From Bradyrhizobium sp. (lineage in GTDB: Bacteria; Pseudomonadota; Alphaproteobacteria; Rhizobiales; Xanthobacteraceae): 64,000 nt of DNA. Below, piece after piece: positions 730 through 9,175 of this stretch. The position numbers and the translations under genes are program-made. Each line of letters opens with the position of its first letter. Positions within the stretch are counted from its first letter, which is position 1. The stretch spans positions 5,300 to 69,299 of the forward strand of contig DASQOU010000328.1 of NCBI GenBank assembly GCA_035644295.1. The letters run 5' to 3'. The notes beneath the pieces were generated by a model. That model had not been told where the DNA came from, searched no databases, and saw nothing but the letters and a program-made list of their open reading frames with translations.

Positions 730-1110
730 GCAGGATGACTTTTCGTCGAATCGTCATCCCGCTCCAGCACCAGACAATGACCGTCATCCTCAGGTGCGAG
801 CGAAGCGAGCCTCGAAGGATGGCAACATGCACGGACTCGAACCATCCTTCGAGGCCCGCGCAAGAGCGCGGGCACCTACGGGTGAACGCAATTGCGTTCC
901 TCCCGGGGATGACGCAGCGAGTGCGCCAATTACTTCGCCAACGCCGGATATGACCAAACCTAATCTCATCCCGCTCTAGCTGCTCCTCGGCGGTCCAACT
1001 TGCATCAACCCGAATTTGCCTGACGCTGGAGCAGGATGACTTTCTCGTTGAATCGTCGTCCCGCTCTGGCACCAGAAAATGACCGTCATCCCCGGGGTGA
1101 ACGCAATTGC
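730..1110. repeat. Cluster of REP-like palindromic repeats; 730-895 is repeated in internally deleted form at 1031-1110
   Basis: GCAGGATGACTTT..GAATCGTC.TCCCGCTC at 730 and 1031; a GTCATCCTCAGGTGCGAGCGAAGCGAGCCTCGAAGGATGG...CCATCCTTCGAGGC palindrome at about 783-885; GGGTGAACGCAATTGC at 880 and 1095. Confidence 0.8.
977..1022. repeat. 46-bp direct repeat, left copy (right copy at 7878-7923)
   Basis: TAGCTGCTCCTCGGCGGTCCAACTTGCATCAACCCGAATTTGCCTG; 42/46 identical to 7878-7923. Confidence 0.9.
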
Positions 1111-1145
1111 ATGTCCAATCAAACCATGGCCACCCGGTCGTCTAT

Positions 1146-2540
1146 TCAGGTTTCGCGGAAAGCGCGGGACAAGCTGTCGAAGACCGGCTTCATAATGTAC
1201 TCGAAAAACGTACGCTCTCCGGTCTTGATGTAAACGTCGGCGGGCATCCCGGGCGTCGGAACGAATTCAGGCATGCGCCTGAGAATATCATCTTGGTCCA
1301 GGCGCACCCGAACGACATAAAATTCCCGACGCGTGTCACTGTCGGGGCGTGTTTCGGTCTTCACCTGCACTTGCTCCGCCAAGGCGTCCGCTGACACGTA
1401 GATGACGCTCGCCCCGACCATCGGCGTGATCCGCTGGTTGAGCGCCGACAGCCGTACCAGCGCCTCCTGGCCTACGCTCACGTGCGAAATGTCCTTTGGA
1501 TTCACGTGTGCCTCGATGATGCGCTCATCGCCTATCGGCAGGAGCTCAAGAATCACGGCGCCGGGAGAGACGACGCCGCCCCGCGTATGAAAGTTGTTCT
1601 TCACCACGATGCCATGGACCGGCGAACGGACGTCGACCCGGTCGACCACATCCTGGGCGGCGCGAATCTGCTCCTCCACGTCGTCCAGCTCCGTTTCGGT
1701 CTCGCGCAGCTCCTTGACTGTATCCCGGAGCGCCGTCGAGTGGAGCTGGGCTATTCTTTCGTTCGCCTGAGCGATCCGCTCCCTCGAATCGGCGATGCGG
1801 CCGAGAAACTCCCCGAGGTCGCCCCCGAGACTCGCCTCGGAGCGTCGCAGCGCCAGCACATCCGACTTGCGGATCAATTGCTGGCCAAGAAGCGAATCCT
1901 TATCCTTCAGCTCCTCGACAAACAGGGCAAGGCGATCTTTGGTGGATTGCACTTGCGCCTGATATCCGCGAATGCTTTCCTCCAGCCCGGCGACTTGCTT
2001 CCTGAGCACGCTTTCCTCGGTCGCGAGACTGGCCCGGCGTGCCCGCAGCTCGGCACGTTGCCGCTCAAGAATCCCTTTGATTTCCGGATCGGCTACGCTC
2101 TGGCTGAATGCGGCCGGACTTTCGATTGTCTCTGAAGAGCGCATTTCGGCTTCGAGACGCGCCTTCATAGCGAGCAGTCGATACTTCTTCAGAACCAGCC
2201 GCCTCAGCTTGGCGTTGGCAGCGGTGTCGTCCATGCGAACGAGGACTTGGCTCGCCTCGACGACATCACCCTCCTTGACTGCAATCTCGCGAAGGATGCC
2301 GCCCTCGAAGTGCTGGACCTGCTTGTTCTGTCCGGTCGCCATGAACGTGCCCGGGGCGAGGACCGCACTATTCAGTGGAGCGACTCCGGCCCAAAGACCG
2401 AAACAACCGAGCCATACGACCAGGATGGCGAGGCCGGTGAAGATGGGCCATTTGGCGCTCAGCGGAACGCCGCGGTACCACTCGCCGACGCTATCCTTTT
2501 CCGCTCTCGTGCTGTCTGCTGTCGTGCTGTCCGCTCTCAT
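1146..2540 (-). CDS. HlyD/PrtE-family type I secretion membrane fusion protein
   Basis: N-terminal TM; KQVQHFEGGIL..V.EGD.V lipoyl-like motif; long coiled coil; PGMPADVYIKTGERTFFEYIMKP C-terminus. Confidence 0.95.
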   Translation of the reverse strand: MRADSTTADSTRAEKDSVGEWYRGVPLSAKWPIFTGLAILVVWLGCFGLWAGVAPLNSAVLAPGTFMATGQNKQVQHFEGGILREIAVKEGDVVEASQVLVRMDDTAANAKLRRLVLKKYRLLAMKARLEAEMRSSETIESPAAFSQSVADPEIKGILERQRAELRARRASLATEESVLRKQVAGLEESIRGYQAQVQSTKDRLALFVEELKDKDSLLGQQLIRKSDVLALRRSEASLGGDLGEFLGRIADSRERIAQANERIAQLHSTALRDTVKELRETETELDDVEEQIRAAQDVVDRVDVRSPVHGIVVKNNFHTRGGVVSPGAVILELLPIGDERIIEAHVNPKDISHVSVGQEALVRLSALNQRITPMVGASVIYVSADALAEQVQVKTETRPDSDTRREFYVVRVRLDQDDILRRMPEFVPTPGMPADVYIKTGERTFFEYIMKPVFDSLSRAFRET

Positions 2541-4375
2541 GCTGTCCTCCCGAGCTGGTCACCTCCCGGGCCCGAGGCTTCGATGCGTCGCGGCTGCTCC
2601 GACTTGTCTCCGCCGGGCGACCGAACCAGGCGGTGCAGCACGTCGCTCGGAGATCCGAATGCTTCCGCGCGTCCCCCCCGCAGGATGAGCACTTTGTCCA
2701 CATTGTTCAGCAGCGCCGGTCGCAGGGTTACAACCACTGCGGTGACCCCCCGCTTTTTGGCGCGCTGCAGCGTCTCGGTCAGAGCCTGCTCGCCCGCCGC
2801 GTCGAGATTCGAGTTGGGCTCGTCGAGCACGACAAGGGACGGATTACCGAAGAAAGCCCGCGCGAGCGCGATCCGCTGCTTCTGTCCTCCGGAGATCGGC
2901 CCGCCGCTGCGGTCGAGCACGGTTTCGTATCCTTGCGGCAGCTGACAGACCATGTCGTGGACGCCCGAGAACATCGCCGCCTCATAGATGCTCGCGTCGG
3001 GCAGGTCGTCGCGCATGCGGCAGATGTTCTGCTTGATGGTCCCGGGAAACAGCTCGACCTCTTGGGGTAGGTAGCCGGTATATTCGCCGAACTGGCGGCG
3101 ATCCCAGTTGCGTAGCTCCGTTCCGTCCAGCCTTACTTTGCCGGCGGTCGGAACCAGACAACCCACCAGAATGCGCGCGAGGGTTGACTTGCCCGATCCG
3201 GACGGTCCGACGATGGCCAGGGCCTCTCCGGGCGCGAGCTCGAGCGACACACCGTTGAGCACCGGCTCCTTCGAGCCAGGCGGCAGGTACAAGATCCGAT
3301 CCACGGTCAGGCGCCCTTCCGGTTTGGGCAGGCGCAGCTTCGGCGTCTCGCGCTGGAATGACTCGACCGCCTGCTTGACGCGCGCATAGGCCGATCGCGC
3401 CTGAACGCAGCTGCGCCATCCCTCGATCAAGCCCTCGAGCGGCTGCAGGGCGCGGCCGGCAATGATCGAAGCCGCGATCATCATGCCGCCGGTGATCTCG
3501 GTATGAAGGGCCAGATAGGCGCCCATGCCGAGAATCGTGATCTGGGCCACGAGCCGGACGAACTTCGACGCACCGCTGATCCAAAAATTCCGGTCGAGGG
3601 CCTGGCTCTGCACCGTCAGGGCCGGCGCCTGCCGGCGCCCCCAATGAAGAATGCTCTCGCTCAGCATTCCCATCGCATTGATCACCTGCGAATTTCGCGC
3701 GAGCGACTCGGCCGCCGCATCCGCCTCCCCGGCATGCAGGCCTGCCTGGCCCAGACGCTCCGAGGTCGCTTTCTGGTTGATGAGCGCGATCAGCGCCAGA
3801 GCCAAGCCCGCCACGACCGCGATGTAGCCGAGATCTCGGTGAACGAGGAATATGACTCCGAAGTAGAGTGGCGAGAGTGGGGCATCCATCAGCAGAAGCA
3901 TGACGGGGCTCGAGATGAATCCGCGCACCTGGTGAAGGCTGCGGATTGCTTGGATGGTCCCGCCCTCGCCGGCCCTGGCGTTGTTGATGCTGCTCGCCAG
4001 CACTGCACCGCCCAGCAAGGCCTCCATCTTGGTTGCAAGACGCCCCAGTACCTGCCGACGCAGAATGTCGACTATCGAGAGGATGCCGATGAACGCCAGC
4101 GCGAGAGCCGAGAGCATCAGCAGTGTCTCGAGGCTGCGGCTCGTCAGTACGCGGTCGGAGATCTGGAACAGGTAGATCGGCAGCGTGAGCATCAGCAGAT
4201 TCACGACGACCGAAAACGCCGCGACCGCGATCAGATTGGCGCGCGCGACCGAACGCCAGGCGGCCAGCGGGTTGACAGGTCCAACATGATCGCGGGGCTC
4301 GCCTTTGGGTGCGACACGAAGCTGATCCGCAGAAAGGCTGCGCGGCGGATTGCTCAGTGTCTCGACGGCCGCCAT
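2537..4375 (-). CDS. PrtD-family type I secretion ABC transporter (permease + ATPase)
   Basis: FSVVVNLLMLTLPIYLFQISDRVLTSRS TMD start; GPSGSGKS; ISGGQKQR; LDEPNSNLD; stop overlaps the MFP start. Confidence 0.95.
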   Translation of the reverse strand: MAAVETLSNPPRSLSADQLRVAPKGEPRDHVGPVNPLAAWRSVARANLIAVAAFSVVVNLLMLTLPIYLFQISDRVLTSRSLETLLMLSALALAFIGILSIVDILRRQVLGRLATKMEALLGGAVLASSINNARAGEGGTIQAIRSLHQVRGFISSPVMLLLMDAPLSPLYFGVIFLVHRDLGYIAVVAGLALALIALINQKATSERLGQAGLHAGEADAAAESLARNSQVINAMGMLSESILHWGRRQAPALTVQSQALDRNFWISGASKFVRLVAQITILGMGAYLALHTEITGGMMIAASIIAGRALQPLEGLIEGWRSCVQARSAYARVKQAVESFQRETPKLRLPKPEGRLTVDRILYLPPGSKEPVLNGVSLELAPGEALAIVGPSGSGKSTLARILVGCLVPTAGKVRLDGTELRNWDRRQFGEYTGYLPQEVELFPGTIKQNICRMRDDLPDASIYEAAMFSGVHDMVCQLPQGYETVLDRSGGPISGGQKQRIALARAFFGNPSLVVLDEPNSNLDAAGEQALTETLQRAKKRGVTAVVVTLRPALLNNVDKVLILRGGRAEAFGSPSDVLHRLVRSPGGDKSEQPRRIEASGPGGDQLGRTA

Positions 4376-4387
4376 GTTCTCCCTCCG

Positions 4388-6136
4388 CTATAAGATGGCA
4401 TGTCCAAGGTGATCGATTGGATGAGTCGTATCCACGATGTCGGGAGGCGGCGGCGCGTGTTTTTGGGCATCGGCAACCACCGGCACCAAAGTATCGTGAG
4501 CCGATGTAGTGTCGGCCGGAGACACGGCGTGCTGCGGGGGGACTCCGATGTCGCTGCTCAGCGTAACGCCGTAGTGAGTATACTGGCTTCCAGCGAACAG
4601 AGCATGTGCTGGAGGCGTTGGCGCGTCGTTCAAGGCGATCACGTCGCTTGCGATGGGGGTCGGATGGACAGTCGCCGCGGCGTTCGATGCGCCCGTCACG
4701 ACGTGGGCTGGGGCAGCCGTCGCGGAGCCAGGAACCTCGATCGGTGAGTCAGTTGAGGTGGCGAGCGCGAGAAGGGTGTCGGCTGGTCCGACGGGTTGAC
4801 CCGTGCTGATGTCCGGCACGGCCGAATGCAACAGGTCGGTCGCAGGGCTGCTGTGCGAGGCCCCGGCGCTGGCGAGGACCGGTTCGGTGGCATCAAGCAC
4901 CGGCGCCGCACTCGGAAAAGCGTTGCTAACCACATTGCTGGCGTCAGCCGGAAGTGACACGTCATGGCTCGGACTGCCGACGGTATCGGTCATAGCCGCG
5001 AGCACCGGCTGTACCGCTGCCTCGACCGGTGCAGGCGTGCCGGACACGTCATGGCTCAGGCTGCTGACAGTATCGGTCACTGCCGCGAGCACCGGCTGCA
5101 CTGCTGCCTCGACCGGCGCGAGCGTGCCGGACACGTCATGGCTCAGGCTGCTGACAGTATCGGTCACTGCCGCGAGCACCGGCTGTACCGCCGCCTCGAC
5201 CGGCGCGAGCGTGCCGGCCAGGTCATGGCTCAGCGTGCCGACGGTATCGGTCACAGCCGCGAGCACCGGCTGCACCGCTGCCTCGACTGGCGCGAGCGTG
5301 CCGGCCAGGTCATGGCCCAGCGTGCCGATGGTATCGGTCACTGCCGCGAGCACCGGCTGCACCGCCGCCTCGACCGGCGCGAGCGTGCCCGCCAGGTCAT
5401 GGCTTAGCGTGCCGACGGTATCGTTCACCGTCATGAGCACCGGCTGCACCACCGGCTCGACCGGCGCAAGCGTGCCCGCCACGTCATGGGTCAGACTGCC
5501 GACGATTCCAAGCACGGGGGCGGAGCCGATCATCGACGGGCTGAACGAACCGCCAAGCACATTGGCCTGAATGGATTCGAGCGTTGACACGCCCGCCAGT
5601 TGACCGCTTCCGAGGTGGAAATCCGCTGACAGCGAGTTGACGGAACTACCGTCGATTGAGGTGTGAGCGTCGTGACTGTGAGAATCGGCACCATCGCCAC
5701 CTCCGCCGCCCCCGCCTCCTCCCCCACCGCCGGCTGCGGCAGCAACTTCGCTGCGGGCAAGGCTGGGCCTGGGCGCGTCTTCATCCGACTGCGCAGGAAG
5801 CCCGGTCTGATCGAGCTGGGCCGCATGCGCCTCAGACGAGGCGGCGGGCCCCTTGGCCGCCTCATCCTCTGCGCTCGCTTTCGAGGAATCACTCGCCGGC
5901 GGATCGTCCGCCGCCTGCGGCGCCGCGGCAGCCTGAACGGCTTTCGCGTCATCGCTCTCGGCCGCCGCAGATTTGAACGTGGCGGCGAGAAACTCTTCGT
6001 TGGCAATCAGCGGGGCAATGAAGAACGGCCAGGTCAAGAAACTGAAAGAGCCGGTTCGCTTGTCCGCACGCTGCACCCCGGCTTCGAAGCCCTTCCGTCG
6101 TTGTTCGAGCAGTTCACGCTTTTCTACTTCGTTCAT
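4388..6136 (-). CDS. Low-complexity acidic protein with six 29-aa amphipathic repeats; candidate T1SS substrate
   Basis: ORF 4388-6193; likely start ATG 6136 after GAAGGG; poly-Gly tract; TLAPVEAAVQPVLAAVTDTVGTLSHDLAG x6; ends 12 bp before the ABC gene. Confidence 0.85.
   Translation of the reverse strand: MNEVEKRELLEQRRKGFEAGVQRADKRTGSFSFLTWPFFIAPLIANEEFLAATFKSAAAESDDAKAVQAAAAPQAADDPPASDSSKASAEDEAAKGPAASSEAHAAQLDQTGLPAQSDEDAPRPSLARSEVAAAAGGGGGGGGGGGGDGADSHSHDAHTSIDGSSVNSLSADFHLGSGQLAGVSTLESIQANVLGGSFSPSMIGSAPVLGIVGSLTHDVAGTLAPVEPVVQPVLMTVNDTVGTLSHDLAGTLAPVEAAVQPVLAAVTDTIGTLGHDLAGTLAPVEAAVQPVLAAVTDTVGTLSHDLAGTLAPVEAAVQPVLAAVTDTVSSLSHDVSGTLAPVEAAVQPVLAAVTDTVSSLSHDVSGTPAPVEAAVQPVLAAMTDTVGSPSHDVSLPADASNVVSNAFPSAAPVLDATEPVLASAGASHSSPATDLLHSAVPDISTGQPVGPADTLLALATSTDSPIEVPGSATAAPAHVVTGASNAAATVHPTPIASDVIALNDAPTPPAHALFAGSQYTHYGVTLSSDIGVPPQHAVSPADTTSAHDTLVPVVADAQKHAPPPPDIVDTTHPIDHLGHAIL
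4957..5503 (-). repeat. 87-bp coding tandem repeat, about 6 copies
   Basis: GTCATGG recurs at 4961, 5048, 5135, 5222, 5309, 5396 and 5483. Confidence 0.95.
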
Positions 6137-6217
6137 GATTGCCGCCCTTCTTTTCGTTCTACTCAAAAACAACTCTCGCCCGGCAGCATTCATTGCCGGG
6201 CGAGTCTTTTCTGCGGA

Positions 6218-6913
6218 TCAGGCGTGATGCGCGATATCATGATGCGACGTGTCCGCCGGAATGTCGAAATGCCCTGCGTCGAAGTGATCCGCTGAGCCCA
6301 TCTGGCCGATAGCGTAGTCGAGCGCATGGCCGGACGACATCGAAGCGAGTGCGCCGTGCATGTCCGAATGATCCGGAGCGTTCGAGCTGAGATCACTATG
6401 GGAGAAGTCGAACTTGGCCAGCGCTTCACCCGGCCCCTTGCCGCAATCGTCGACCGGCTTGGTGTCGCAATGGTCCTTCTGCGGCTGGCAGTAGTCCTTG
6501 TGCGGCTGGCAGTCGTCATTCTTGGCGTGCTTGTCGTGATCGTTCCTGTGGTCGTCGTTCCTGGCCTGCTTGTCGTGATCGTCCCTGTGGTCGTCGTTCC
6601 TGGCCTGCTTGTCGTGATCGTCCCTATGGTCGTCGTTCTTGGCCTGCTTGTCGTGGTCGTCCCTATGGTCGTCGTTCTTGACCTGCTTCTCGCAATCGTC
6701 CCTATGGTCGTCGTTCTTGGCCTGTTTCTCGCGATCGTCCCTGTGATCGTCGTTCTTGGCCTGCTTCTCGTGATCATCGTTCTTTGATTCCTCGCGACCC
6801 TTGTGCTTTTCGTCGCCGCGGTCGTCGCACTTGGTTGGCTTGCATTCCTCGCTTGGGATCCCGAGATTCTTTATCGGCTCGAGAACGTTTGTAACGCTGC
6901 TCAGGATAGACAT
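6218..6913 (-). CDS. His/Asp-rich 13-aa repeat protein (231 aa); candidate secreted metal-binding protein
   Basis: GAGGAG RBS; NDDHRDDHDKQA(K/R) x6 plus a partial copy; Cys-containing flanks; His-rich C-terminus; no signal peptide. Confidence 0.85.
   Translation of the reverse strand: MSILSSVTNVLEPIKNLGIPSEECKPTKCDDRGDEKHKGREESKNDDHEKQAKNDDHRDDREKQAKNDDHRDDCEKQVKNDDHRDDHDKQAKNDDHRDDHDKQARNDDHRDDHDKQARNDDHRNDHDKHAKNDDCQPHKDYCQPQKDHCDTKPVDDCGKGPGEALAKFDFSHSDLSSNAPDHSDMHGALASMSSGHALDYAIGQMGSADHFDAGHFDIPADTSHHDIAHHA
6512..6784 (-). repeat. 39-bp coding tandem repeat, 6-7 copies
   Basis: TCGTC(G/A)TTC(C/T)TG recurs every 39 bp from about 6512 to 6746. Confidence 0.95.
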
Positions 6914-6988
6914 GGTTGCGCTCCTCGCTTGGGGTTTGCGACGGTCGCGGGCGCATGCCTCGTCCGGATCACCACGCCGTCATCCCTA

Positions 6989-7015
6989 TTGTCGCCGACG
7001 CACGCCGATGGATGC
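6989..7015 (-). promoter_or_regulatory. Candidate SigK/ECF18-type promoter for the repeat-protein/T1SS operon
   Basis: GCATCC-N15-CGACAA on the minus strand between the sigma gene and 6913; resembles the recalled SigK-type consensus (CATCC...CG). Confidence 0.4.
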
Positions 7016-7032
7016 AGCGGCAAAAAATAAAT

Positions 7033-7656
7033 TCACGCCTCATCGAGCTGCCGGCGCATGGCCACCAGCTCTCTCCTGATCCATGCCTTGACCGTTCCGA
7101 CCGGGACCTGGAGGTATTCGGCGATCTCCTCGTGAGTGCGCCCGTCGATGATCGCCAGCAGCAGGCTCGCGCGGCGCTTTGGCTCGAGGTGATCGAGCAT
7201 GGTCCGCAGCACCATACTGTCGGGGATGCAGGATGCAGGGTTCGGGATGGTCTGTGTCCGCTCGCAGATGGCGTTCAGCGTATCGTCGTCGAGCACGAGT
7301 TCGCGCGCGGCGTTCTCCTGCATCTTGAGCGCCGTGTTACGGACGATCGCGTAGATCCAGCCCCGGGCGCATCCCCGTGCAGGATCGAAGTTTTTGGCAT
7401 CCCGGAGAATCTGCGCAAATGCATCGTGGATGACATCCTCCGCACGTGAGACGTCGTGGACGATCCGTTGCGCCACCGCGCGCAACTGGTCCTTCTCCCG
7501 GACGTAGATCTTGCCGACGGCCGACCGCGATCCGGAGGCGCACTCGATCAGTGCTGTTTCGTAATTGAGAGCCGTTTCGCAACTGAGGCGTTTCTCAGCC
7601 CCCGCGGTGGTGCGGTGAGACTCTGCCTTTGTGAAGCCGGCTCGTTGGCGGGGCAT
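7033..7656 (-). CDS. ECF sigma-70 factor (SigK-like), no adjacent anti-sigma gene
   Basis: AEDVIHDAF, FDPARG.ARGWIYAIVRN (region 2); THEEIAEYLQVPVGTVKAWIRR (region 4). Confidence 0.92.
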   Translation of the reverse strand: MPRQRAGFTKAESHRTTAGAEKRLSCETALNYETALIECASGSRSAVGKIYVREKDQLRAVAQRIVHDVSRAEDVIHDAFAQILRDAKNFDPARGCARGWIYAIVRNTALKMQENAARELVLDDDTLNAICERTQTIPNPASCIPDSMVLRTMLDHLEPKRRASLLLAIIDGRTHEEIAEYLQVPVGTVKAWIRRELVAMRRQLDEA

Positions 7657-7686
7657 GTCAACGTCACCTGTCGCAAAACAGACGCG

Positions 7687-7772
7687 ACTATTCCCATGAA
7701 GGGAATAGTGACTTGCATTCCACTTGCATTCCAGTCGCGAACCACTTGCACTCTAATTGCCACTTGCATTCC
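7687..7772. promoter_or_regulatory. Inverted repeat plus four ACTTGCA(T/C)TC(C/T) direct repeats upstream of the ECF gene
   Basis: ACTATTCCC-atgaa-GGGAATAGT at 7687-7709; ACTTGCATTCC at 7711, 7722 and 7762; ACTTGCACTCT at 7744. Confidence 0.6.
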
Positions 7773-7877
7773 AATTGCGAATCAGCTGCTGACGAGCTCA
7801 ATCCAGCGGCATCTACTTTGTTCCCGAAAAATTTTCGGATCGCTACGACGCCGAAAGCGGAAGTAAATTCAGAGCGT

Positions 7878-7923
7878 TAGCTGCTCCTCCGCGGCCCAAC
7901 TTGCATCAATCCAAATTTGCCTG
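7878..7923. repeat. 46-bp direct repeat, right copy
   Basis: TAGCTGCTCCTCCGCGGCCCAACTTGCATCAATCCAAATTTGCCTG; matches 977-1022. Confidence 0.9.
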
Positions 7924-7942
7924 GTGCCAATGGGTCCGCGCT

Positions 7943-9175
7943 TTAGTTTCCTGGCCGATGCAGCTGTGGACGATGCCGGGTAAAGGACGCGCGGCCGCGC
8001 TTGATGCCCCACAGCGGTTGCGCCAACGTCGCGATCGCGTCCGTGGGGTTGCTTGCATCCAGACACACCAGGTCGGCCGGTCCTCCGACGGCGATGCCGT
8101 AATCGTCCAGCCGCATCAGCCGTGCCGCGGAGCCGGTGATCATGTCGAGGCATCCGGCGAGATCGGCCGGGCGCGACACGTGGCAGACATTCGCATAAAG
8201 GTTTGCCATCCGGATCAATGAGCCGTCGCCATACGGCGTGAACGGGTTCAGGACATTGTTGGTCGAGATCGAGCAGGTCACGCCCGCCTTGCGCAGAGGC
8301 TCTGCCGGCACGACACCGCGCGGCACCGCATGGTCGTGACTGCGGCCCATCAAGTGGAGATCGGTCGACGGCAATATCGTTACGGCGACGCCGGCATTGG
8401 CGAGCCGCGCCGCGATTTCGTTGAAGCGCTCCGGTGGCAGCAGCGACATCTGGGTGACATGGCCGACGGCCACCCGGCCGCCCCAGCCGAATTCCTCGGT
8501 CTTGCGGCAGACATATTCGACCTGCATGCCCTGCGTGGTCTCGGCGAGATCAAGGTGCATATCGATTTCGGCATCGAAATCGCGGGCGATGGCAAAAATT
8601 CGATCGATCTGGGCGCGGGGGTCGGTGTCGAAATACGGCGCCGCACCGATCGCCCGCGCACCGCGGCGCAGGCCCTCGATCAACAACTCTTCCGTGCCGG
8701 GGTAGTTGGTGAGTCCCTCCTGCGGGAATACGCATAGTTCGACATCGATCGCCCAGGCATAGTCACGTGCGAGCTGCTCGACCGCCTCAAAGCCGATCAT
8801 TCCTATTCCCGGATCAAGCTCGACATGGGTGCGCATCCGCATGGTGCCCTGCGTGATGCAGCGTTCCAGCGTCTGCCTGCCGCGCCCATAAACGTCCTCG
8901 ACGGTGAAGCCGCGCTTCGCGGCGGCGGTTTGCCGCACAGCCTCGGCGACGGTGCCCTCTTCGATGCGGCAGCGGTCGAGAATGCAGGTCTTGTCGAGAT
9001 GGATGTGCGTCTCGATCATGCCTGGGACGACGAGGCAGCCCGTGGCTTTCAGTTCGGGTCCATCGGCCTGAAGCGCCGAAGCGATCGCCGCGATCGTTTG
9101 GTCTTGAATGGCGATATCGGCGCTGACGAGCTCGCCCTCGCGCAGAATGCGAGCGTCACGAATGATCAGGTCCAT
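7943..9175 (-). CDS. Cytosine/creatinine deaminase-like amidohydrolase with non-canonical active site
   Basis: HIHLDK, FPQEG, HLD, VAVGH, NPFTPYG motifs. Confidence 0.88.
   Translation of the reverse strand: MDLIIRDARILREGELVSADIAIQDQTIAAIASALQADGPELKATGCLVVPGMIETHIHLDKTCILDRCRIEEGTVAEAVRQTAAAKRGFTVEDVYGRGRQTLERCITQGTMRMRTHVELDPGIGMIGFEAVEQLARDYAWAIDVELCVFPQEGLTNYPGTEELLIEGLRRGARAIGAAPYFDTDPRAQIDRIFAIARDFDAEIDMHLDLAETTQGMQVEYVCRKTEEFGWGGRVAVGHVTQMSLLPPERFNEIAARLANAGVAVTILPSTDLHLMGRSHDHAVPRGVVPAEPLRKAGVTCSISTNNVLNPFTPYGDGSLIRMANLYANVCHVSRPADLAGCLDMITGSAARLMRLDDYGIAVGGPADLVCLDASNPTDAIATLAQPLWGIKRGRASFTRHRPQLHRPGN

Follow-up and report, generated by a model that had tools for sequence, protein, structure and literature searches.

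In a 64,000-nt stretch of DNA from Bradyrhizobium sp. (assembly GCA_035644295.1, contig DASQOU010000328.1, positions 5,300 to 69,299, hereafter the window), five co-oriented genes on the minus strand (1146-7772) encode, in this order, an extracytoplasmic function (ECF) sigma factor, a protein rich in histidine and aspartate (His/Asp), a protein composed of 29-residue repeats (Rep29), an ATP-binding cassette (ABC) transporter of the PrtD type and a HlyD-family periplasmic adaptor (MFP). We consider it fairly probable, judging from sequence, that this unit is a dedicated type I secretion operon, which serves two proteins devoid of repeats-in-toxin (RTX) arrays and possesses its own sigma factor. 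The gene arrangement is far beyond chance, because the same order is found in 18 genomes and about 80 metagenome loci. Both repeat proteins are most likely substrates of the pump, and the main argument for this assignment is that their C-terminal tails track the pump.

How type I secretion handles RTX proteins is well understood; the catalogue of its non-RTX substrates and of their signals is poor. Type I systems typically carry acidic, repeat-rich, disordered proteins devoid of a Sec signal, and the two repeat proteins share the corresponding traits: low isoelectric point (pI), tandem repeats, lack of Sec or Tat signal, predicted disorder and, in the case of Rep29, absence of cysteine.

In the mechanism that we propose, the ABC transporter and its adaptor would pair with a TolC-family channel encoded elsewhere in the genome, and one or both repeat proteins would be exported unfolded, C-terminus first, with their family-conserved tails acting as non-cleaved secretion signals. 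The ECF factor would be a Bradyrhizobium-specific transcriptional switch for the operon, probably governed by its own transcription via GGAATGCAAG boxes and a palindrome located upstream of its gene. A hairpin behind the His/Asp gene would make the message for ECF and His/Asp more abundant than the read-through message for Rep29 and the pump. Secretion, ECF dependence, attenuation at the hairpin and an extracellular role are what we infer from these sequence features. Outside the cell, amphipathic repeats might form a surface or matrix coat, and the Asp/His/Cys-rich protein might bind cations; no fold supports a metal-binding, matrix or surface-layer role, as both proteins are predicted to be disordered.

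The pump and the two proteins encoded with it

The PrtD-type ABC permease/ATPase (2537-4375, minus strand, 612 amino acids (aa)) reaches 666.2 bits with TIGR01842 (PrtD), whose cut-off is 510.15, and its best solved relative is PrtD of Aquifex aeolicus (5L22, E = 9.5e-130, residues 35-586). It carries no C39 or C39-like N-terminal domain, with about 45 residues preceding the membrane domain, and stays far under the cut-offs of TIGR01193 and TIGR03796, the models of peptidase-containing exporters. The adaptor (1146-2540, minus strand, 464 aa) reaches 382.7 bits with TIGR01843 (cut-off 208.65). Since both family models are passed and the match to 5L22 is full-length, the two proteins can be regarded, on the basis of sequence, as a bona fide PrtD/HlyD type I pump. 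The genes are tightly packed: 12 nt separate Rep29 from the ABC gene, and the ABC and MFP genes overlap by 4 nt. Two matches to the TolC family exceed the cut-off of TIGR01844 on other contigs (C324 and C258) of the same genome, a metagenome-assembled one that is 73% complete.

A pattern scan for the repeat protein, performed on one genome per species, revealed 18 loci, all of them in Bradyrhizobium isolates or metagenome-assembled genomes, with carriers including B. hereditatis, B. vignae, B. canariense, B. valentinum, B. retamae and B. shewense. The order ECF, His/Asp, Rep29, ABC, MFP is kept in every locus that is long enough. Identity to the window proteins in Bradyrhizobium is 88-92% for ABC, 81-89% for MFP, 71-81% for ECF (18 genome loci), 35-65% for His/Asp and 38-69% for Rep29, the latter varying in length from about 600 to about 1550 aa via changes in repeat number. 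A profile search for the family was positive in 26 of 400 species sampled within the genus; the tallies of this search include one unpublished genome (G016), which no claim relies on. Eighty further loci come from soil metagenomes; where their flanks are long enough, His/Asp is present in 66 of 67, ECF in 35 of 36, ABC in 17 of 17 and MFP in 13 of 13.

An earlier note on this DNA, made from the letters alone, had described a self-contained module of five co-oriented genes, from ECF to MFP, without a TolC gene or an anti-sigma factor, and had proposed a search for syntenic homologues. All five open reading frames (ORFs) were found, with the strand corrected to minus; the contig as a whole gave no TolC-family match either, and Pfam and NCBIfam detect no anti-sigma domain in the unit. 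The homologues recur as outlined above, so that the module is a conserved unit, which moreover seems to have moved as a block in the window genome (see below). The author of the note did not recognise a described system, and indeed none was found for the pair in literature, Pfam or NCBIfam. Our literature searches retrieved no description of such a system and no experimentally defined type I substrate for Bradyrhizobium.

Cargo candidate 1, the His/Asp protein (6218-6913, minus strand, 231 aa), is rich in His, Asp and Cys. It begins with a conserved MSILSSVT sequence and contains a Cys-spaced segment, PGEALAKFDFSH, and 13-residue repeats, NDDHRDDHDKQAK, encoded by a 39-nt DNA unit present in 6.8 copies with 91% matches (6512-6775). 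The C-terminal part of about 70 aa is conserved and closes with FDxGHFDxPADTSHH. No Pfam or NCBIfam family exceeds its threshold. In an AlphaFold2 model based on the family alignment, mean pLDDT (the per-residue confidence of the model) is 51 and only two short helices appear (185-204), so that the protein is predicted to be disordered. A double-glycine leader at the N-terminus was rejected by eye, its consensus not being fitted. One contig of soil DNA skips about 313 nt of the repeat array (window 6433-6747).

Cargo candidate 2, Rep29, lies in an ORF spanning 6193-4388. Family alignments place its true start at M20, position 6136 (MNEVEKRELL), and this start is preceded by a conserved ribosome-binding site (RBS), AAGAAGGG (AAGAAGG); on these grounds the gene is set to 4388-6136 (minus strand) and the protein to 582 aa. 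A conserved N-terminal helix is followed by an aromatic motif, GSFSFLTWPFFIAPLIA, and by a poly-Gly run. The 29-residue helical repeats correspond to an 87-nt DNA unit present in 6.3 copies with 90% matches (4958-5504). Nearer to the C-terminus stands the motif DVIALND..LFxGxQYTxYGVTLSSD, and the tail reads PDIVDTTHxIDHLGHAIL. There is no cysteine in the sequence. The AlphaFold2 model has a mean pLDDT of 38, with 70-74 for the N-terminal helix; it places one helix of about 22 residues in each repeat and leaves the C-terminal third disordered. No Pfam or NCBIfam family exceeds its threshold for Rep29. Weak Pfam matches below threshold (Baculo_PEP_C, DUF948, DUF2959, apolipoprotein-type repeats) fit amphipathic helical repeats. 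Searches of the ESM Atlas with the cargo proteins returned noise only (scores at most 0.77). A Tat signal was considered for Rep29 and rejected, since the RR of 'EQRRKGF' varies among relatives (ERK or QQK) and no hydrophobic region follows it. In soil DNA runs, a 9-nt insertion occurs in the poly-Gly run (window 5694); given the length variants in soil DNA, repeat number appears to be polymorphic in natural populations.

What the earlier note had said of the two proteins holds on closer inspection. Their tails, DTSHHDIAHHA in His/Asp and DTTHPIDHLGHAIL in Rep29, are correct on the translations. Both proteins are acidic, with pI 5.27 (His/Asp) and 4.36 (Rep29), and both lack a signal peptide, N-terminal hydrophobicity remaining below that of a Sec signal or a clear membrane helix. 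RTX nonapeptides form no array, the lone GGxGxD being located inside the poly-Gly run, and none of the module proteins has a match to the Pfam family RTX/HemolysinCabind.

A core shared with a second genus

A profile of the N-terminal 70 residues of Rep29, compared with 1.84 billion representative proteins, gave 65 matches. About 25 of them are distant relatives, 22-27% identical and 400-900 aa long, that belong to no Pfam family. They display an N-terminal motif ERRRGxFSFLTWPFFLAQ, a C-proximal motif SGGxIAF...DLFxxGxYTxYGxAL and an extreme tail DDIxxxxxDxLL, all three of which are common to window Rep29.

In an order-level genome sample, two genomes of a genus from another family (labelled g87) carry a module cargo 1-cargo 2-ABC-MFP (L050:4378-12048 and L051:7389-14871), in which ABC is 68-72% and MFP 53-56% identical. 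Next to this module lies a LuxR/GerE regulator; an ECF gene is absent. A class-level sample yielded no further carriers. Cargo 2 of g87 keeps the N-terminal RGxxSFLTWxFF and ends in VDDLTSNLHHGLFG (DDL...GL(F/L)G type). Cargo 1 of g87, otherwise unlike His/Asp, ends with ...DMSDVGALL...LDLDHLTSTVDLFDLGHVDTAMDTTHHS, comparable to ...DMHGALAS...LDYAIGQMGSADHFDAGHFDIPADTSHH in Bradyrhizobium, and has the tail FDxGHxDxxxDTxHH. Neither the MSILSSVT N-terminus nor the Cys-spaced PGEALAKFDFSH segment was detected in g87, hhalign matching the tail only. Close to their N-termini both g87 repeat proteins also have a NNYYY(T/S)xDSH motif, and their helical repeats are rich in V, D and T.

Because g87 keeps the pair and the pump with a LuxR-type regulator in place of ECF, the core of the system, as far as sequence comparison defines it, is the candidate cargo pair plus the pump, and ECF is a lineage-specific regulator. 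The proposal of the earlier note, a pair with its own sigma factor, thus suits Bradyrhizobium, where ECF heads the unit, and needs qualifying, as the sigma factor lies outside the core that the two genera share. From one family to the other, the last ~50 residues of both proteins stay with the pump, with bodies and regulator changing around them, as one would expect if C-terminal signals were matched to a transporter.

The comparison with characterised systems shows what is familiar here and what is not. The PrtD/PrtE/PrtF and HasD/HasE/HasF systems resemble the unit in an ABC protein without C39 domain, in a TIGR01843 adaptor and in cargo genes directly upstream in the operon; an outer-membrane partner encoded elsewhere is also known from several systems. 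They differ in that the candidate cargo of the present unit bears neither RTX repeats nor a known family, that there are two unrelated cargo candidates and that an ECF gene heads the operon. The haemophore system Has of Serratia and Pseudomonas consists of the ECF factor HasI, the anti-sigma factor HasS, the receptor HasR, the non-RTX substrate HasA and the HasDE pump. The Bradyrhizobium locus is similar in combining an ECF factor, a PrtD-type pump and a non-RTX protein, which is only a predicted cargo here. No Pfam or NCBIfam match to a Has-like anti-sigma factor, a TonB-dependent receptor or HasA was obtained with the module proteins, and the window unit is flanked instead by a deaminase gene and by a gene for a small secreted protein.

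For the proposed cargo, the nearest precedent comes from Ehrlichia chaffeensis, whose tandem repeat proteins TRP47, TRP120 and TRP32 are acidic non-canonical type I substrates with a non-cleaved C-terminal signal and no classical RTX arrays (PMC3417381). The likeness lies in acidic tandem-repeat proteins of an alphaproteobacterium, those described here being cargo by prediction only; there is no sequence similarity, and the Ehrlichia genes are unlinked to a pump or sigma factor. According to the rule of Delepelaire (2004), in the form quoted in PMC3417381, type I tails are rich in the residues LDAVTSIF and poor in KHPMWC. LDAVTSIF residues make up 60-62% of the last 50 residues of both window proteins, compared with 52.5 +/- 8% in window ORFs, and the tails of the distant relatives are both LDAVTSIF-rich and KHPMWC-poor; those of the window proteins agree with the first half of the rule and not with the second (see below).

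The sigma factor and the control regions

The ECF protein (7033-7656, minus strand, 207 aa) is composed of sigma-2 and sigma-4 regions only (Sigma70_r2, residues 51-113; Sigma70_r4_2, residues 149-197) and scores 66.6 bits with TIGR02937 (cut-off 42.9). Its gene is always the first one of the unit in the 18 genome loci. Neither of the two proteins encoded downstream of it has an anti-sigma domain according to Pfam and NCBIfam, and the spacer between ECF and cargo 1, about 120-150 nt across loci, contains no gene. ECF groups without an anti-sigma factor are known, are often transcriptionally controlled, and 16 groups are without any known regulator (PMC7826278).

The region upstream of the ECF gene (7657-7877, minus strand) contains several conspicuous elements, read from the sequence and its direct repeats. 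The start codon is preceded, at a distance of about 170 nt, by an A/T tract followed by GGGAAC (7825-7820). Then (T)GGAATGCAAGTG is repeated three to four times (7773-7711), and a perfect 9-bp palindrome, ACTATTCCC-N5-GGGAATAGT (7709-7687), stands just before the RBS. An alignment of 17 related loci shows that many of them, though not all, share the GGGAAC block, the GGAAATGCAAG repeats and the palindrome; the repeats appear there as a (G)GAAATGCAAG(T/C) box, present two to four times, and the palindrome as CTATTCCC-N5-GGGAATAG. The elements may act in control of the ECF gene.

The non-coding spacer between ECF and cargo 1 (6914-7032, minus strand, 119 nt) has a mean column identity of 76% in 12 loci, above that of the cargo coding regions, with many columns invariant, and ends in the RBS GAGGAG. 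RNAalifold folds it at -14 kcal/mol with essentially no covariation, and Rfam has no match in window positions 900-8000, which include the spacer. The spacer is probably a control element at the DNA level, possibly a promoter or operator.

A terminator-like hairpin (6204-6175, minus strand) lies between the stop codon of cargo 1 and the true start of cargo 2, where it overlaps the spurious ATG at 6193. Its stem of 11-12 bp with 9 G-C pairs is followed by a U-rich tract; minimum free energy is -28.7 kcal/mol and the z score -4.2. The hairpin is kept in one Bradyrhizobium clade and lost in others: it was found with pairing-preserving changes in loci L005, L013 and L021 by single-sequence folding and in L009, L011 and L014-L016 by eye, and is absent from L004, L007, L008 and L018 (folded) and from L010 and L012 (by eye). 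In hlyCABD of E. coli, a terminator is situated between the cargo gene and the pump genes. The present hairpin likewise follows a cargo gene and precedes the transporter genes and by analogy would set a high ratio of cargo 1 to pump message; it differs in standing between two cargo genes and in being missing from some relatives, and no antitermination factor is known for it. Contigs from two soil metatranscriptome libraries carry parts of all five genes with few mismatches. One of them (window 6107-6320) spans the hairpin and bridges His/Asp and Rep29, and another (4353-4503) bridges Rep29 and ABC.

Genomic neighbourhood, competing explanations and significance

In the window, the unit extends from the control region to the MFP stop codon and lies between the deaminase gene and the small secreted-protein gene. 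It is bracketed as a 6.9-kb block by two copies of a 46-nt direct repeat (977-1022 and 7878-7923, 91% identical, spacing 6901 nt), the right one adjoining the deaminase gene. In the nearest relative (G071) the repeat occurs once, next to the deaminase gene where the contig ends, and in another genome (G151) the deaminase locus and the secretion unit are on separate contigs. Taken together, the bracketing repeats, the single copy and the separate contigs suggest that the unit seems to have been inserted here as one block; no integrase or transposase gene is present within it. Such a move as a whole agrees with the earlier note's wording, 'self-contained'. Repeated palindromic intergenic elements occupy positions 740-1110, downstream of the MFP gene, namely a direct repeat (D3; 740-794 and 1042-1096) and inverted repeats (805-859 and 888-914/1084-1110). 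In appearance they resemble the repetitive extragenic palindromic (REP) type of repeats common in Bradyrhizobium genomes.

In relatives the surroundings are different. Sixteen genome loci extend far enough upstream to show the neighbour, and in all of them the unit adjoins, back to back, a cluster of bacteriocin type; of 13 metagenome loci whose upstream flank measures 5 kb or more, 9 have this arrangement. For most Bradyrhizobium relatives the unit is therefore not isolated. The cluster comprises a double-glycine-leader peptide, a HlyD adaptor and an ABC exporter with C39 peptidase. In locus L021, a small ORF (L021:7590-7943, minus strand) encodes a Cys/Gly-rich peptide behind a classical leader of the double-glycine type (...LSDEELDLVAAG|TGDCGCHDGG...) and adjoins genes for a HlyD adaptor (L021:6186-7436) and a C39 ABC protein; this is a probable bacteriocin or microcin locus. 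No C39 exporter or peptide locus was found in the window or in its 73%-complete genome.

The C39 ABC protein of the relatives (L021:3801-6182, minus strand, and its equivalents in L004-L019) has an in-frame C-terminal tail of 85-145 aa in the 14 loci examined. This tail is homologous to the Cys-spaced middle of His/Asp (CQPQKDYCDPKPSDDCGKG..NPGEALAKFDFSH), its ends being variable and lineage-specific. Its ratio of nonsynonymous to synonymous substitutions (dN/dS) is mostly 0.3-0.8, with a few pairs over 1, against about 0.1 for the ABC core, and so fits a weakly constrained disordered segment. On one soil contig (L052:1-3156), the repeat-protein gene is immediately preceded by the 3' end of a co-oriented C39 ABC gene, followed by a His/Asp-like segment, with no ECF gene in between; this arrangement suggests recombination between two His/Asp-like sequences.

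The fusion is the strongest argument for some function of His/Asp-like sequence inside the cell, and one of several facts that would suit a different division of labour, in which Rep29 alone is exported and His/Asp remains in the cytoplasm as a regulator or metal sensor, for example as an unconventional soluble anti-sigma factor or a metal-responsive modulator of ECF. Its gene directly follows the ECF gene in all loci, the usual place of an anti-sigma gene, its Bradyrhizobium-specific parts (MSILSSVT and the Cys-spaced segment) co-occur with ECF, its richness in His, Asp and Cys is what a metal sensor might have, and the hairpin parts its gene from the downstream ones. We nevertheless judge this explanation unlikely. 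The protein is predicted to be disordered, no anti-sigma domain was found in it (Pfam, NCBIfam), and its last ~50 residues resemble those of g87 cargo 1, where ECF is missing; being shared with cargo 1 of an ECF-less genus, the tail cannot be an ECF-binding element. Besides, ECF factors without anti-sigma partners are common, as the 16 groups without known regulator illustrate (PMC7826278).

Proximity to a bacteriocin-type cluster raises the question whether Rep29 is an interbacterial weapon, namely a large type I-secreted bacteriocin-like or membrane-active toxin whose conserved aromatic N-terminus inserts into a membrane; unit and C39 exporter would then form one competition locus. Fast divergence and variable repeat number of the cargo proteins, patchy occurrence in the genus (the 26 of 400 species) and repeats predicted to be amphipathic helices would agree with such a role. 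Nevertheless, the unit offers no candidate for an immunity gene, there is no similarity to any toxin family, and the window copy as well as 4 of the 13 metagenome loci lack the C39 neighbour, which makes a weapon improbable in our estimation.

Flagellar assembly provides another analogy: FlgM, a disordered anti-sigma factor of sigma-28, is exported through the flagellar apparatus. Here too the gene for a small protein, predicted to be disordered, neighbours those for a sigma factor and an exporter, in an operon without a conventional anti-sigma factor. His/Asp (or the N-terminus of Rep29) might accordingly hold ECF inactive until export frees it; in such a scheme His/Asp would have been co-opted as an exported ECF inhibitor, and the pump would switch on its own operon, possibly with metal binding to the His/Asp/Cys repeats as a tuning signal. 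This is pure analogy, the exporter is of a different type and the related g87 module has no sigma factor; we know of no described precedent for an FlgM-like checkpoint built on a type I system, and give secretion-coupled control of this kind very little credence. Least credible of all is Rep29 as a membrane-anchored anti-sigma factor, attached to ECF by its short charged N-terminal helix and to the membrane by its hydrophobic segment: conservation and model confidence are indeed highest in the N-terminal 45 residues (pLDDT 70-74), and a charged helix followed by a hydrophobic stretch does resemble short class II anti-sigma domains, but the hydrophobic stretch peaks at 1.09 in a 19-residue Kyte-Doolittle window, compared with 2.1-2.5 for the membrane helices of ABC and MFP, and the N-terminal motif is kept in g87 with no ECF at the locus, and on these two grounds we disfavour this reading.

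A dedicated secretion operon for both proteins is therefore the explanation that we prefer, and several observations count against it. RTX repeats, the commonest hallmark of PrtD-type substrates, are absent. The residues KHPMWC make up 26-32% of the last 50 residues of both proteins versus 16 +/- 6% in controls, so that the window tails are not KHPMWC-poor, owing to their His and Pro content. The His/Asp protein has 7 Cys residues, which is unusual for type I substrates, and the best-conserved part of Rep29 is its N-terminus, not its C-terminus. The match between cargo 1 tails across genera is short (18 columns, hhalign E = 0.017); all that strengthens it is its location, which in both genera is the C-terminal end of the module's first protein. 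The tail of the C39 ABC protein, presumably cytoplasmic given that it follows the ATPase domain in the general ABC architecture, hints at an intracellular role of His/Asp-like sequence. As to ECF dependence, the region upstream of the ECF gene and the spacer share no -35/-10 word (5-mer/N15-19/4-mer), and no ECF-type promoter is definable, GGGAAC-N17-TTGAG being a candidate only. Finally, the metatranscriptome contigs are weak evidence of expression and read-through of the operon in soil, as such libraries can contain DNA.

The secretion machine is of a known kind; what is new are the cargo families, their motif set and the coupling to ECF or LuxR regulators. The unit defines two protein families with clear motifs, widespread in soil metagenomes: RGxFSFLTWPFF, GGxIAF...LFxxGxYTxYG and DDIxxxxxDxLL in cargo 2, FDxGHxDxxxDTxHH in cargo 1. 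In two families of the order, these motifs accompany a specific PrtD/HlyD pair. The ECF factor without an anti-sigma partner and the His/Asp-like tail on the neighbouring ABC exporter present further regulatory puzzles. If the motifs are secretion signals, they would constitute a compact, testable recognition code for a PrtD-type pump and would provide a handle on the surface and exoprotein biology of an agriculturally important genus.

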